DNA of 54,893 bases from a virus (IMGVR_UViG_3300037225_000166:1-54893), one strand, 5' to 3'; shown: positions 24,156 through 31,374, counted from the stretch's first letter. Translations and numbers: made by a program. Notes: a model not told the origin generated them from the letters alone.

Positions 24156-24234
24156 TAATGTTTATAAATCAATTATGGATAGTAGTAGATGTAATCATAA
24201 CCGATTTTGCAGAGGGGATGGGTGTTGGCTGTAA

Positions 24235-24335
24235 TGGGATCGAGGATAGGTGCGGTTCAGTGTGTACTCACACTGAAAGAGAGCACCTAACACACTATGC
24301 AGTACACAGTGTATCGCACCTATCCTTTGTTCGGG
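24235..24335 (-). repeat. attC-like hairpin 1
   Basis: AGGATAGGTGCG...TGTGTACT / AGTACACA...CGCACCTATCCT, then GTTCGGG. Confidence 0.65.
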
Positions 24336-24455
24336 TTAGTGCGCTTCGTGTAAACGCTAACTTTATAAGTGTGTTATCCTCGATCCCATTCGGGTTAATC
24401 AGGATGAAAGGAGAATGATTTTTCAATATTTAATGAACGTATAAATTACAAAATT

Positions 24456-24677
24456 ATGTTAAAGAGAATTATTAGTTATGTTGTTTTTTGCTTATTAGTA
24501 CTTCCTTACGGAATATATCTTTTCATAAAAGATGAGATATTTATTATTAAACTCAAAAAATCAGACGATTCATCCGTTAAGCGAGATGAGAATAAATGCG
24601 AATGTATACAAATACACAGGACTGAATTTCGAAATAGAATTGAAACCTGTACCTTCTGTAACAAACCTCTAAATTAA
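24456..24677 (+). CDS. Cassette ORF: small TM plus Cys-motif protein
   Basis: N-terminal TM; CEC...CTFC. Confidence 0.5.
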   Translation: MLKRIISYVVFCLLVLPYGIYLFIKDEIFIIKLKKSDDSSVKRDENKCECIQIHRTEFRNRIETCTFCNKPLN

Positions 24678-24703
24678 GCATTTATGAACACGAAGCGGAT
24701 TAA

Positions 24704-24832
24704 CCCGAACGGTTACAGCCTTATTTAGTGCGGGCTTAATAGTACTAACTTACATTTAAAGACAAAAGTTTATGGAAAGCACAAAAGTTGAAAACAGCAC
24801 AAACCCCGCATTGAATAAGGCTGATGTTATAA
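24704..24832 (-). repeat. attC-like hairpin 2
   Basis: CAGCCTTATTTAGTGCGGG / CCCGCATTGAATAAGGCTG, then GTTATAA at 24826. Confidence 0.75.
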
Positions 24833-24990
24833 GAAGGCCGTTTGATGCAGAAATTGACAACGGGAGAATTATGATTTATACGAGCGAGTGGGATGAATTT
24901 GGAGAATTGAAGTGGACTGCGAATATAATATCACCTGAAAGATTTAAGGAGGTTGTAAAGAACTACGAGGCTCTTACGGCTTTCTTATAA
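24772..24990 (+). CDS. Cassette ORF starting inside hairpin 2 and ending at the junction TAA
   Basis: The stop codon is the TAA of TTATAAC at 24985-24991. Confidence 0.55.
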   Translation: MESTKVENSTNPALNKADVIRRPFDAEIDNGRIMIYTSEWDEFGELKWTANIISPERFKEVVKNYEALTAFL

Positions 24991-25393
24991 CGGCCTTCGG
25001 GTAAGAGCAGGTTTGTGTTACGTTTTTAATGAATTTTATATGGATAAAAAATTGGAACAATTTTACTTTAACTGATTAAATAGAACGAAAATGAAAGAAT
25101 TAACAGATCAATTTGAAATTGAAAAATACAAAGAAGAATTAGACGATCATAGAAAAATAGAACAGATGAAAAACAAGGACTATGATTATGACCACAAAGG
25201 GAATATTGAATATTGTTCATGTGGCAGACCGTTAAATTCTCATGGATGGTGTTTCAGATGTGATGGCTAATGCCTAACAATTTTGAAAAAAATTGGGTGC
25301 GGTGGGAAAATTCTTTAAAATAAGTAAAACAAAACTGATGTTAAGTTGCGATACTTTGAGTAACCTCAAACTTGCTTTTACCCGATGTTACAG
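24985..25393 (-). repeat. attC-like hairpin 3 with a gene in its loop
   Basis: TCGGGTAAGAGCAGGTTTG / CAAACTTGCTTTTACCCGA, then GTTACAG at 25387. Confidence 0.65.
25091..25270 (+). CDS. Small zinc-finger protein (59 aa, not in the ORF track)
   Basis: CSCG...CFRC; A-rich leader before the ATG. Confidence 0.5.
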   Translation: MKELTDQFEIEKYKEELDDHRKIEQMKNKDYDYDHKGNIEYCSCGRPLNSHGWCFRCDG

Positions 25394-25511
25394 CCTGCAC
25401 CCATCACGTGATAGGGGTAAAATCGCAACTTATAGCGGTGGCTTACCCGAAGGCCGTTACAGTGCAATAGTGTGAAAGGAGAATGATTTTTTAACTTATA
25501 AAAACTAAAAT

Positions 25512-25796
25512 ATGAAAGAGATTGATAACTTGATTGAAAAATGGGAAAAAGAAGCTGCTAACTATGAGAAAAAATCGTATGAGGCATTTAGGGATTTCAA
25601 AGAACGCAGAACGTTATATGCTTGGACAAAGCAGCTTCGTAAATGTACTAAAGACCTTAAAAAATTAGGCGATTCACACGTAGAGCGTAATGTTTTAATT
25701 GATTTTATAAAAGAATTGAAGAAGGAATTTGCTGATGTCAATTTAGATTACTTAGACTTTGCAGCAGAACGATTCCTAAATCAATTAAAACCATGA
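25512..25796 (+). CDS. Cassette hypothetical protein
   Basis: 94 aa ORF with A-rich leader. Confidence 0.55.
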   Translation: MKEIDNLIEKWEKEAANYEKKSYEAFRDFKERRTLYAWTKQLRKCTKDLKKLGDSHVERNVLIDFIKELKKEFADVNLDYLDFAAERFLNQLKP

Positions 25797-25810
25797 AGCG
25801 GATTGCACTG

Positions 25811-25892
25811 TAACGATCAAGGGCAAGCACAGTACAAATGAGTAGTAGATAGATGATTGAAAGAGTTATTTTCAAAACTTTAGGAGGGATTT
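25811..25892 (+). repeat. ~80 bp junction/arm repeat, near-identical to 30031-30113 and partly similar to 27275-27300
   Basis: Shared TAACGATCA...CACAGTACAAA...AGATAGATGA...GAAAGAGTTATTTT.AAAACTTTAGGAGGGATTTT. Confidence 0.8.
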
Positions 25893-29296: not shown

Positions 29297-29436
29297 AAAA
29301 ACAGAAGCGGGAGGGGCATTTTTTATTTTTCATCAAATTACCGATGAACTTAAATAGAAGCTACTCCACCGCTTGTTTATAACGGTATCCGAACATGAAT
29401 AGTACGACTAATTAAGAATATAACTTGATAAATGAT

Positions 29437-29649
29437 ATGAGAATAAAAAATTTAAAGCAAGGGTATTATCTCCTAATTTGTAGATTATTAGGACATATTT
29501 ACATTCTAAAACCCAAACCTGATATACTCAGTAATAAACGAGAATGTAAACGATGCGGACACAGACAAATCAGGATGCAAAAAAAATTCCCTGAATTTTA
29601 TTGGATAGATGATCCAGTTGAAAAGTTTATTAACACTAAAATACCATAA
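29437..29649 (+). CDS. DUF1660-like small protein
   Basis: LICRLLGH...CKRCG motif. Confidence 0.55.
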   Translation: MRIKNLKQGYYLLICRLLGHIYILKPKPDILSNKRECKRCGHRQIRMQKKFPEFYWIDDPVEKFINTKIP

Positions 29650-29651
29650 TC

Positions 29652-29852
29652 ATGAAAAAAGTAAATTTTACAGTAATAATTTCAAAAGAAGTGCCAGTTG
29701 AAATAGAGTATATCGAAGGAGATACAAACGAGATTATAAACGATAAATGTGTTAAACAAGCATTGAGTAAGGTTAATGAAGATAGTTTTGATTGGAAGGC
29801 TAATGTTGTAATAAATACAATGGATTTTATTAAAAACAAACTCCGATCTTAA
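29652..29852 (+). CDS. Hypothetical protein
   Basis: ORF in the array. Confidence 0.5.
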   Translation: MKKVNFTVIISKEVPVEIEYIEGDTNEIINDKCVKQALSKVNEDSFDWKANVVINTMDFIKNKLRS

Positions 29853-29926
29853 TGAAGCAAGGGTAAATTTTTTATTAAACCTGAATAAGCATAGAAGCTA
29901 TGAACAGAGTATTATTTATGTTTGGT

Positions 29927-30034
29927 GTTATAAACTGGCTGAATTATGCAGCCAATAGCATATACATGGGCGTGTATATGATGTTTGCAGGGCTGCATAA
30001 TAAGGGATTGAAGCAGGGGCAGCTTGTTTATAAC
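29927..30034. ncRNA. ORF-less palindromic cassette (108 bp)
   Basis: GTTATAAAC/GTTTATAAC ends; ATTATGCAGCC/GGCTGCATAAT; CATATAC/GTATATG. Confidence 0.45.
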
Positions 30035-30113
30035 GATCACGTACATACACAGTACAAACGAGCAGAAGATAGATGAAAGAAAGAGTTATTTTTAAAACTT
30101 TAGGAGGGATTTT

Positions 30114-31178
30114 ATGATTCATATTGGTTTATTTTCTGGTATTGGTGGTTTTGAACTTGCCGCATCATGGAAAGGATGGAACACCATTGTAACCTGCGAA
30201 ATAAACGACTTTTGCAATACCGTATTAAATTATTACTTTCCAGATGCTTACCATCATGGAGATATAAAAACACTTACTTATGACACAATTAACATTGAAC
30301 TTTCAAAACGATTCGGAAAAGGCTGGAGAAACGAACCAATCATCCTTACAGGTGGATTCCCATGCCAACCGTATAGCATATCCGGAAAAAGAGAAGGCAA
30401 AGAAGATCCTCGCCATCTCTGGCCGGAAATGCTTAGAACAATACGAGAAATTCAACCAATGTTCGTTGTGGGGGAAAATGTTTATGGACTTGTTAATTGG
30501 AATGGAGGTATGGTATTCAACCAAGTGCAAGTTGATTTGGAAAATGAGGGCTACCAAGTACAACCGGTTATTCTTCCAGCTTGTGCCATTGATGCGCCAC
30601 ACAAACGAGAAAGAGTTTGGTTTGTTGCCTACAATACAAACTCAGGGATTGAAGGTATGCAACAATGGAAAAACCGGATTTATGAAAACAGATTTACTTC
30701 CAACACCAACATCACACCAACAAGGAACACAATTCAAACAGGGAGGAACTTGCCTACAAGCAAAATTATTACCGACACCGAAAAAACAAAACTCAAACAG
30801 TCCAGGAATACACGGACAGGGAGGAATGGATTTACAGACCTACATAATGACAAATATGTTACCGACACCAGATGCAGCATCAGGAAAAACAGGATATATG
30901 GGAAAGAATCGGAACGGAAAGCAGGAGAATTTAGAAACGGTAATTCGGAACAAGATAGATGGTCAAACTTCCCTACTCAATCCCCGATTTGTAGCCGAAA
31001 TGATGGGATTTCCTCCAAACTGGTTGGAATTACCTTTTCAAAGCATAGAAACGAATCAATTAAAGGATACGGAAATGCAATAGTACCCGAACTGGCTTAC
31101 ATTATCTATGATGCAATCGATCAGTTTTGTAAAAAACTGCAAGAAGCGAGGGAAAGTTTTAAAAATAACGAGAAATAA
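30114..31178 (+). CDS. dcm: DNA C5-cytosine methyltransferase, alpha polypeptide
   Basis: LFSGIGGF (I), GGFPCQPYS (IV), ENV (VI), HKRERVW (VIII), YGNAIVP (X). Confidence 0.9.
   Translation: MIHIGLFSGIGGFELAASWKGWNTIVTCEINDFCNTVLNYYFPDAYHHGDIKTLTYDTINIELSKRFGKGWRNEPIILTGGFPCQPYSISGKREGKEDPRHLWPEMLRTIREIQPMFVVGENVYGLVNWNGGMVFNQVQVDLENEGYQVQPVILPACAIDAPHKRERVWFVAYNTNSGIEGMQQWKNRIYENRFTSNTNITPTRNTIQTGRNLPTSKIITDTEKTKLKQSRNTRTGRNGFTDLHNDKYVTDTRCSIRKNRIYGKESERKAGEFRNGNSEQDRWSNFPTQSPICSRNDGISSKLVGITFSKHRNESIKGYGNAIVPELAYIIYDAIDQFCKKLQEARESFKNNEK
30280..31083 (+). CDS. Overlapping alternate-frame beta polypeptide of the C5 methyltransferase
   Basis: 267 aa ORF nested in dcm; LPTP repeats and LNPRFVAEMMGFPPNW (motif IX-like). 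Confidence 0.7.
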   Translation: MTQLTLNFQNDSEKAGETNQSSLQVDSHANRIAYPEKEKAKKILAISGRKCLEQYEKFNQCSLWGKMFMDLLIGMEVWYSTKCKLIWKMRATKYNRLFFQLVPLMRHTNEKEFGLLPTIQTQGLKVCNNGKTGFMKTDLLPTPTSHQQGTQFKQGGTCLQAKLLPTPKKQNSNSPGIHGQGGMDLQTYIMTNMLPTPDAASGKTGYMGKNRNGKQENLETVIRNKIDGQTSLLNPRFVAEMMGFPPNWLELPFQSIETNQLKDTEMQ

Positions 31179-31225
31179 CCTACAAAATGAACTACGAAGA
31201 TATGAAGGTATTGTGTATGTACGGT

Positions 31226-31345
31226 GTTATGCAGCCTGTACTCAGGCGGACTGTTGCAGGGGCTTTGCGATATGGTGTAAACACTCTGTTTGCACCGTTG
31301 AGAGAGCAAAGTGTGTGTGGGATTTCGTGTGCAATAGTGCATAAT
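31226..31345. ncRNA. ORF-less structured cassette, homologous to 28093-28214
   Basis: Shares GTTGCAGGGG, TATGGTGTAA, TTGCACCGTTG and GTGTGCAAT, with compensatory changes. Confidence 0.5.
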
Positions 31346-31374
31346 CTTGTATATATACGACTTAATTAAATAAT

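Follow-up and report, generated by a model that had tools for sequence, protein, structure and literature searches.

What kind of element is the array of small genes that lies among the head genes of the virus record IMGVR_UViG_3300037225_000166, and can its genes move? The window, by which we mean the whole of this stretch, corresponds to one complete virus record of IMG/VR, 54,893 bases long, and the array occupies about 7.1 kb of it. An initial annotation read the block as an integron-like array of attC cassettes, without an integrase, on which a host IntI-type recombinase could act in trans. The best explanation that we find is that the array consists of about eight mobile gene cassettes, bounded by hairpins and of a kind not described before. 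We further propose, with a confidence somewhat better than even, that they represent a new family of hairpin-bounded phage cassettes which are exchanged at the sequence TAAC by an activity acting in trans and whose stems double as expression signals. No description of the element was found in the full-text literature, which does not cover the supplementary tables of Qi et al. [quoted passage not shown]

Two kinds of stem on the coding strand

The + strand, which carries all long open reading frames (ORFs) of the window, is from 24232 to 31345 a chain of abutting stems without linkers. The stems are of two kinds. In the hairpins called H, the order is TAAC|G, arm, loop, matching arm and TGTTA, the pairing starting 5 nt past AAC and stopping 1-2 nt before GTT; in the stems called S, about 15 nt from the GTT pair with about 15 nt ending at the next TAAC. 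The repeated succession of AAC, arm, loop, arm and GTT described initially is thus real, and all seven closing GTT sites stand as described, the one at 25387 recurring at 25456. Of the nine AAC junctions, seven are likewise as described and two (24235 and 31345) read TAAT, and the arm at junction 25814 has no partner above chance, with a best ungapped score of 15/21 compared with a mean of 14.9 for shuffled arms. Elsewhere the complementarity is extensive: 24329-24351 / 24688-24710 (23 nt, 91%), 24826-24841 / 24976-24991 (16 nt, 94%), 24988-25005 / 25442-25459 (18/18) and 24716-24737 / 24802-24823 (22 nt, 86%). In four H stems all 16 positions pair, Watson-Crick and G.T pairs taken together, with the same geometry of 5-nt and 1-2-nt spacers (AAC to GTT: 24708 to 24826, 24989 to 25387, 29381 to 29927 and 30032 to 31226). 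Two of these enclose 0.5 kb and 1.2 kb of genes, and gene-holding loops of 0.4-1.2 kb are present in four H units of the window.

Applying fixed thresholds to the window, we counted 31 H-type candidates on its + strand and 10 on its - strand, the chance level from 10 block shuffles being 9-14. The same strand is favoured by three local S-type elements, E8, E11 and E10, which as RNA fold at -63.5, -49.4 and -41.4 kcal/mol on the + strand (z-scores of -6.5, -3.5 and -4.6) versus -42.1, -26.2 and -32.7 kcal/mol on the - strand, that is, 9-23 kcal/mol better. E8 and E11 are homologous and differ by compensatory changes in three helices.

The S rule was examined over 49 pairs of consecutive hairpins, from 14 loci and the window, by comparing the 10 nt from GTT with the 10 nt up to and including the next AAC. 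At least 9 of the 10 positions form Watson-Crick pairs in 36 of the 49 cassettes, compared with 2.4% of 2318 permuted pairs, and arms flanking one and the same H reach this level in merely 4 of 68 cases; the 11 cassettes below 8/10 are mostly long intervals in which an intermediate hairpin was probably missed. The complementarity of each GTT end to the next AAC end, first noticed on stems of 16 and 23 nt in the window, is supported and goes with covariation. The S stem has a fixed design, namely a helix of 9-10 bp, a position often occupied by T.T, an invariant G.T and then 4-5 bp, to which the S stems of the window conform, and the T at position -10 of the 3' arm (S3') is invariant (38/38). 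The non-Watson-Crick pairs of S comprise 40 G.T or T.G and 7 A.C or C.A, so that it is the + strand that folds, be it as RNA or as single-stranded DNA.

The stems also have a regular relation to the genes. The start codon of the downstream gene lies inside the hairpin in 53 of 68 cases, the ORF continuing past GTT, and a stop codon often precedes the TAA of TAAC by 12 nt, in the same frame. With respect to the ATG of the loop, GTT has no constant frame (23, 18, 12), so that GTTA is a signal at the level of nucleotides and not of codons.

A hairpin family shared by unrelated phages

The same H and S grammar recurs in viral contigs around relatives of the N6 methyltransferase of the array, with compensatory changes. 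A pattern of 21 nt from the hairpin loop matched 16 viral stretches, three small contigs of metagenome-assembled genomes (MAGs) and 65 metagenome contigs. The three MAG contigs, assigned by title to Bacteroidales, Bacteroidota and Omnitrophota, are the only genome contigs having the element. Methyltransferase relatives from another type of phage (L008-L013) are accompanied by ordinary terminators, show no H/S grammar and were excluded from all counts.

Aligning 19 hairpins gave a consensus stem of 19 bp in which 14 pairs are changed on both sides, and the covariance model R1 was built from this alignment. It found 66 copies (E up to 0.001) in 19 viral sources, and 141 further copies in the 65 metagenome contigs. 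Five whole phage records provided 29 copies (E up to 0.01), which are clustered there in arrays of up to 13. The alignment of the 66 copies leans towards structure, having been fitted to the model. It has pairing in 95.8% of its cells and compensatory change at 18 of 19 pairs, and scores 0.86 for covariation, compared with 0.175 in shuffles and at most 0.13 when the partners are slid. One G.U (G.T in DNA) is invariant in 66/66 copies, and the only other invariant letters are the A of TAAC and the TGTT(A) at the feet, GTT being present in 66/66. The short H elements measure 86-127 nt from AAC to GTT (median 123), and four units of the window have the far longer loops of 0.4-1.2 kb; attC sites are about 57-141 nt long with a variable terminal structure. 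The record of locus L007 (G001) has a second array, of three H elements on the opposite strand at 41.4-43.3 kb, far from its main array of 13.

One H type, H2 (28211-28336, 126 nt), is at least 95% identical in 23 loci, and its identity is 95-99% across otherwise unalignable phages from many habitats; the matches begin at 28206-28212 in 18 of the 23 loci and finish at 28335-28340 in 20. Five other near-complete H-bearing phage records have almost no proteins in common with the window, and the comparison of these records with the window for a common protein provided no candidate enzyme. The H hairpin is thus a conserved family which is not peculiar to the phage of the window. Taken with the S stems, these results show structures kept by compensatory change and specific for the sense strand in many unrelated phages, and they bear out the initial remark that the arms differ between units while their pairing is kept.

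Joints of the shared units and the explanations for them

Whole units, made of H, gene and S, recur near-identical (97-100%) where the surroundings are unrelated; their joints are at TAAC, and their 3' flanks lack homology. One such case is that of loci L014 and L015, which share 1005-1012 nt at 99.8-100% identity between 6-kb flanks that cannot be aligned. Their identity runs from the TAAC at the 5' foot of the hairpin to seven bases into the next junction (…ACAACGGTA), and the shared unit is composed of hairpin, 5' arm of S (S5'), gene and S3', which shows that the hairpin moves with the gene downstream of it, as the initial annotation had supposed.

We screened all loci for segments at least 97% identical over at least 200 nt with unrelated flanks. 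Three L014/L015 rows being merged, the screen provided 17 distinct break ends, 8 left and 9 right, two of the left ones sharing the L040 end. Six left ends lie at |TAAC within 4 nt, one just after TAAC and one within the 5' arm of H. Four right ends fall directly after AAC, one 4 nt before ACAAC, two in the DPPYG motif of methyltransferases, one after a stop codon and one at TTTTATA|. Altogether 10-11 of the 17 are within 4 nt of TAAC, where 4.4% would be expected (P about 4e-10 for at least 10). One cassette 3' end (…GGCG(T/C)ATAAC) has five different continuations in five contigs, all starting directly after ATAAC. The left end just after TAAC is a 100-nt insertion (1132-1231) that locus L079 carries, relative to positions 110-112 of L093, at exactly this point, the same 100-nt segment following a different ...ACAAC in L093 itself (5222-5322). 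Right-hand joints have at most 4-9 nt in common, with no homology beyond TAAC(G); homologous recombination fails to explain them because so little is shared, and assembly joins at repeats cannot produce them. The S rule, the covariation of H, the break ends at TAAC and the unrelated flanks together support the initial view of the block as a cassette array bounded at, and exchanged at, the AA|C points.

These observations suggest the following plan for a unit: TAAC|G, about 5 unpaired nt and a 19-bp covarying stem with one invariant G.T; an AU-rich loop, usually with a start codon, followed by the 3' arm, 1-2 nt and TGTTA; and finally the stem in which about 15 nt from GTT pair with the last 15 or so before the next TAAC. 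Joints at TAAC without homology, covarying cassette ends and AAC/GTT feet, an integron-like signature, point to breakage and joining at the foot of the hairpin. Units would be broken and joined within TAAC once the hairpin is folded, presumably on the + strand of single-stranded DNA, and a circular intermediate is probable, in which S3', H and S5' would form one long hairpin. Such an exchange would be analogous to attC recombination or to hairpin-guided single-strand transposition, its enzyme being supplied in trans, either by the host or as a protein not recognised in the record. Because the folding strand is also the mRNA strand, H and S very likely serve expression as well, as a module in which the start codon would be presented in an open loop, the upstream frames closed and the gene folded as its own domain. 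The start codons in loops, the fixed stops in S and the conserved G.U also argue for this RNA role, which is compatible with exchange at the DNA level since a mobile cassette gains from an expression module of its own that is proof against context. More tentatively, and with a confidence that stays below even, we suggest that phages of Bacteroidota-type hosts share their own integron-like exchange system without an integron platform. The sense-strand hairpin would be at once a translation-start module and a recombination site, folded single-stranded DNA would be broken and rejoined within TAAC by an enzyme such as a Xer-type recombinase of the host or a phage protein that escaped recognition, and a common pool of counter-defence cassettes would move between unrelated phages.

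Several observations weigh against exchange at TAAC. Every structural feature is on the mRNA-sense strand and most hairpins hold a start codon, so that selection at the RNA level could explain the conservation without DNA recombination. Left ends bordering the shared 126-nt repeat could be homologous exchange or assembly joins, and 6-7 of the 17 break ends are away from TAAC, which indicates that ordinary mosaicism acts too. The near-identical H2 precedes different genes, always in frame, and H and the gene body also part at GTTA, or by homologous exchange inside H. In the window itself, the unit 25814-27277 lacks a partner for its H arm and its S arm, and the stem 27284-27293 / 28081-28090 has merely 10 bp. 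The family was sampled through one H subtype and one methyltransferase, which biases cargo and copy counts, and its largest alignment is the model-fitted one. Finally, no exchange enzyme was identified when the phage records were searched for tyrosine recombinases, Y1 transposases and resolvases. The 54.9-kb record has no match to the tyrosine recombinase family (PF00589) at E up to 1 and none to the Y1 transposase and resolvase families, in agreement with the initial statement that it encodes no recombinase, and Y1_Tnp (PF01797) has no match in the five near-complete H-bearing phage records. Confident tyrosine recombinases are present in 2 of 10 other H-bearing virus records. One of the two, in locus L015, is encoded directly after the array (8049-8852); it is a 267-aa tyrosine recombinase of the Xer/IntI clade (XerA 175 bits, IntI TIGR02249 161 bits), which is below every curated cut-off and is followed by many TGTTGTA repeats (8880-9110), iterons typical of an integration module.

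The main rival, which we judge unlikely, is an origin of all these features purely at the RNA level. H would be a 5' leader that opens a start region devoid of a Shine-Dalgarno sequence and blocks upstream translation, S an insulator, stability or processing element, and the mosaic would come from ordinary illegitimate and homologous recombination, of which only the joints at module borders survive selection. The folding of the sense strand, the strong preference for G.U over A.C, the invariant G.U within a covarying helix, the ATG in H loops with an ORF continuing past GTT and the stop at a fixed distance inside S3' all agree with this explanation, as do the several break ends away from TAAC. 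RNA data agree as well: a public run listing places the stretch, or part of it, in peat and permafrost metagenomes and in six RNA rows, and the RNA runs contain more than half of its sampled words. It is less easily reconciled with the exact post-AAC joints, which share at most 4-9 nt and recur in independent pairs, or with a 126-nt H2 almost unchanged across phages that cannot otherwise be aligned. Moreover, AAC/GTT conservation at the helix foot and the T.T and G.T of S resemble marks for recognition by a protein, and RNase III-type cutting in S would part the start codon from the body of its gene.

A true integron-type CALIN, in which the H hairpins are attC sites recombined in trans by a host IntI, is very unlikely. 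The likeness which led to this reading is considerable. As in integrons and CALINs, mostly single-gene units are arrayed head to tail, each junction has a structured imperfect palindrome whose foot keeps AAC and GTT alone, a spacer without pairing is followed by a stem, a variable loop, the returning stem and a second spacer, and arms of different sequence still pair. A unit begins with bases complementary to those at its own end, here over 15 nt, exchange falls at AAC, the features belong to one strand, methyltransferases are among the cargo and no integrase is adjacent. Qi et al. 2023 (PMC9892861) report CALINs with methyltransferase cassettes in virulent phages, including a Polaribacter phage, and the recombination by IntI1 of 5 of 6 phage attC sites tested.

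The detailed structure differs from that of attC sites. The R-box consensus is at chance, RYYYAAC being found in 8 of 68 sites and GTTRRRY in 7, with 4.25 expected, and the stem corresponding to the R boxes is 15 bp long with its own conserved mismatches, T.T and G.T. Extrahelical bases, which the initial annotation proposed to look for in the folded + strand, are not conserved; the inner stem is an uninterrupted helix of 19 bp with its invariant G.T. The hairpin lies 5' of the gene and usually contains its start codon, the strand that looks recombinogenic is the coding strand, some loops of 0.4-1.2 kb contain whole genes, and there is no attI, Pc promoter or IntI. A comparison of 24000-31600 with Rfam, at the gathering threshold as well as at E up to 5, gave no family, except two matches at chance level (E 1.5 and 2.9). 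Thus R-box consensus, extrahelical bases, ORF position and integrase all depart from the integron pattern and the complementarity of cassette ends agrees with it. Membership of attC is not supported, on sequence features rather than attC-model scores. The action of a host IntI is doubtful too, since integrons are reported as very rare in Bacteroidetes (PMC9024848), and since the element, otherwise found in phage contigs, occurs in three small MAG pieces of Bacteroidota type.

Highly improbable is an explanation by regulatory repeats similar to the promoter-early stem-loops (PeSLs) of T4-type hyperplastic regions, which would serve as homology patches for the shuffling of intervening genes by general recombination. 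The description of PeSLs in Arbiol et al. 2010 (PMC2839356) makes them the closest phage analogue in role: they are repeated, structured intergenic elements of hyperplastic phage regions, flank small accessory genes, go with modular gain, loss and replacement, and have been reported to yield mini-circles upon exchange. The arrays studied here are also in variable regions, H2 is a near-identical repeat of 126 nt in many phages, the phage encodes a recombination-type exonuclease and one break end is inside an H arm. In contrast, a PeSL as portrayed there is a sigma-70 promoter with a terminator hairpin that offers homology, whereas the arms of the array covary rather than repeat, leaving little homology to recombine within one array, each gene is bracketed by its own complementary ends, for which PeSLs as described have no counterpart, and right-hand joints need no homology beyond TAAC(G). 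Neither sigma-70-type promoters (31 versus 33.1 expected, in a scan that leaves Bacteroidota-type promoters uncovered) nor intrinsic terminators (5 versus 4.2 expected) are enriched.

IS200/IS605-type elements recognise imperfect hairpins near their ends in a strand-specific manner and cleave at an adjoining fixed short sequence. The least probable account is a non-autonomous 'peel and paste' element of this type (PATE-like), which a Y1 HUH transposase acting in trans would mobilise, with cuts at a fixed tetranucleotide 5' of the left hairpin and 3' of the right stem: it fits the strand-specific features, the fixed TAAC to the left of the unit and as its last four bases, the hairpin near the left end and the stem closing at the right end, but not the lack of Y1_Tnp in the five near-complete records, a right 'hairpin' that is a long-range stem around a whole gene, the head-to-tail rather than scattered units, or a protein-coding cargo fused to the hairpin. 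A further comparison is offered by the attP site of CTX phage, where host tyrosine recombinases of the Xer/IntI clade act on the hairpin of one DNA strand. The Xer/IntI-like gene directly after the L015 array recalls this system, from which the present one differs in that the gene falls below the curated cut-offs and precedes iterons, and in the scarcity of confident recombinases in the other records and their absence from the window. Self-cleaving ribozymes, group I and II introns, invertible segments and transposons of the MITE (miniature inverted-repeat transposable element) type were dropped, having no core motifs in common with the element; the inverted ends differ among units and no direct target duplications are seen.

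Units of the window, their cargo and the host phage

The features of the array, all on the + strand, can be followed unit by unit. Before it, in the gap after the MuF gene, TACATTTG (24148..24155) matches TAnnTTTG, which we take to be the Bacteroidota -7 promoter motif. The initial annotation placed a promoter here; the motif is present but weak on its own, because the whole window has 49 such motifs on the + and 56 on the - strand; it is one of three in the array region. The first H hairpin (24232..24331, arms 24236-24268 / 24301-24333, 29 of 33 positions paired, 25 of them Watson-Crick) has TAAT and not TAAC at its 5' foot, and its 3' foot recurs at 24375-24390. The S stem after it (24329..24710) has a G.T at position 11 and encloses an ORF of 73 aa (24456-24677). 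Next comes the short hairpin H1 (24705..24834, arms 24716-24731 / 24808-24823, 16/16 pairs, 100.8 bits with R1), whose loop contains the ATG of ORF 24772-24990; the following S stem (24826..24991) surrounds the body of this ORF, and its stop codon is the TAA of TAAC.

The following H (24989..25459) has a long loop containing ORF 25091-25270 and two alternative 3' arms, pairing 24992-25007 with 25440-25455 and 24997-25012 with 25370-25385 (18/18, 16/16 and 14/14 recorded). Its S stem (25455..25815, 25455-25468 / 25802-25815), in which 12/12 positions of GTTACAGTGCAA and TTGCACTGTAAC pair, encloses an ORF of 94 aa (25512-25796). In two units the 3' foot of H, GTT and the 5' arm of S are doubled about 50-70 nt apart (24321-24351 / 24375-24400 and 25370-25400 / 25440-25470); these doubled segments could be alternative pairings or scars of past exchange. 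The repeat TGAAAGGAGAATGATTTTT follows each second copy.

Copy 1 of a leader repeat (25811-25893), detected by a repeat finder, opens the unit 25811..27278, which has five small ORFs (25918-27277) without PHROG family and ends in GTATAAC. Copy 2 begins a long-loop H read from the sequence (27275..28095, arms 27284-27293 / 28081-28090), whose stem, with 9 Watson-Crick pairs, one G.T and 5-nt and 2-nt spacers, is the weakest of the set and whose loop contains ORF 27374-27583 and YopX (27595-28020). E8 (28093..28214), a local branched element reading GTTATATG...CATATAAC, leads to H2 (28209..28340, 153.9 bits with R1), the most conserved H type, which has in its loop the ATG (28271) of the N6 methyltransferase. 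The S stem around this N6/N4 DNA methyltransferase gene (28271-29296, Pfam N6_N4_Mtase) spans 28332..29383 (28332-28346 / 29369-29383, 12 Watson-Crick pairs and one G.T of 15), and its L015 version shows compensatory changes. A further long-loop H (29381..29929, arms 29389-29404 / 29910-29925, 16/16 pairs, 13 Watson-Crick) has the G of all three G.T pairs in its 5' arm and contains ORFs 29425-29649 and 29652-29852; it is followed by the long S-type hairpin E10 (29927..30034), GTTATAAAC...GTTTATAAC. Copy 3 of the leader repeat starts the last H (30031..31228, arms 30040-30055 / 31208-31223, 16/16 pairs, 15 Watson-Crick), whose loop holds the C5 DNA methyltransferase gene (30114-31178, Pfam DNA_methylase), and the array ends with the branched E11 (31226..31345), whose 3' foot is TAAT. 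Three ORFs (28039-28278, 29900-30076 and 31187-31369) start in the preceding H loop and cross E8, E10 and E11; they would encode small hydrophobic peptides sharing an (F/C)M..GV(I/M) start, and may be either translated or mere by-products of palindromes rich in G+C. The hexamer GAAGCG occurs 17 times in the window and 8 of these are inside the array, which makes up 13% of the window's length (24692, 25795, 26991, 28012, 28183, 28393, 29304 and 31143), mostly at gene ends and as GAAGCG..GGG. The pattern of a second leader type (TAACGATCA...) had no match in viral contigs, and nhmmer searches of the collected loci with E8/E11 and this leader type returned the window's own copies and one weak match.

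Pfam confirms the cargo of two DNA methyltransferases (N6/N4 and C5) and YopX that had been read initially, and a PHROG search of ten small ORFs of the array gave no family. Among the 47 longest cassette ORFs of 14 loci, 11 are N6/N4 methyltransferases, one each matches a C5 methyltransferase, a D12 methyltransferase, Mom and other methyltransferase families, and most of the rest have no Pfam family. The share of methyltransferases is inflated, because it was a methyltransferase and its leader that led to these loci. The enrichment in DNA-modification genes suggests that the array may act as a swappable counter-restriction kit.

The region in which the array is located, with the MuF head gene on one side and later head-morphogenesis genes on the other, is variable. 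According to Pfam, it is preceded on the + strand by the large terminase (19804-21330), a Mu-type portal (21830-23266) and a MuF-like head protein of 208 aa (23479-24105), and followed by an ORF with a PBECR2 nuclease domain (31798-32190) and a virion-morphogenesis protein (32465-33079). The variability is seen in L002, the closest relative by its portal (51% identity), which has about 4 kb opposite 11.6 kb of the window. The MuF protein aligns from end to end with residues 1-196 of the 458-aa L002 homologue (L002 8357-9733) at 45% identity, the array starts at the point where the longer homologue would go on, and the PBECR2 ORF has no similarity to the C-terminal part of that homologue; the site of the array may be the junction of a MuF domain and a variable C-terminal module. 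The hosts of this phage of about 55 kb probably belong to Bacteroidota. Among 50,697 phage records, neither the block (megablast) nor H2 (blastn) had a match, and the portal and the methyltransferase reached merely 24-38% identity with cultured phages (tblastn).

Other features of the record are distant from the array. An exonuclease of recombination type (phrog_5715, 7010-7720) is followed by an unannotated ORF of 268 aa (7742-8548), and the two may form an exonuclease/annealase recombination pair. Weak C-terminal AP2 DNA-binding domains, both under the Pfam cut-off, were seen at 6243-7013 (E 0.0037) and 10143-10934 (E 3.4e-5); phage proteins with this domain are often homing endonucleases. 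A borderline Rfam match to permuted transfer-messenger RNA (RF04321) lies in an intergenic gap at 3890-4023 (+), with 47.4 bits for a gathering threshold of 47, and spans positions 29-109 of the 213 of the model.

The acquisition by phages of small accessory genes, such as 'morons' and counter-defence genes, is mostly ascribed to rare illegitimate recombination. Here, phages with almost no shared genes have in common a set format of the units, a defined joint at TAAC and a frame of two conserved helices. Should the exchange be enzymatic, it would constitute, beside integrons, a second and phage-borne case of structure-directed cassette recombination, and a route for the spreading of DNA-modification genes that defeat restriction. 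If the elements act only as RNA, they would represent a leader and bracket motif, widespread and with strong covariation, that serves expression without Shine-Dalgarno sequences and would be a natural 'insulator' of genes. In both cases the element is a useful marker for arrays of accessory genes in viral metagenomes.

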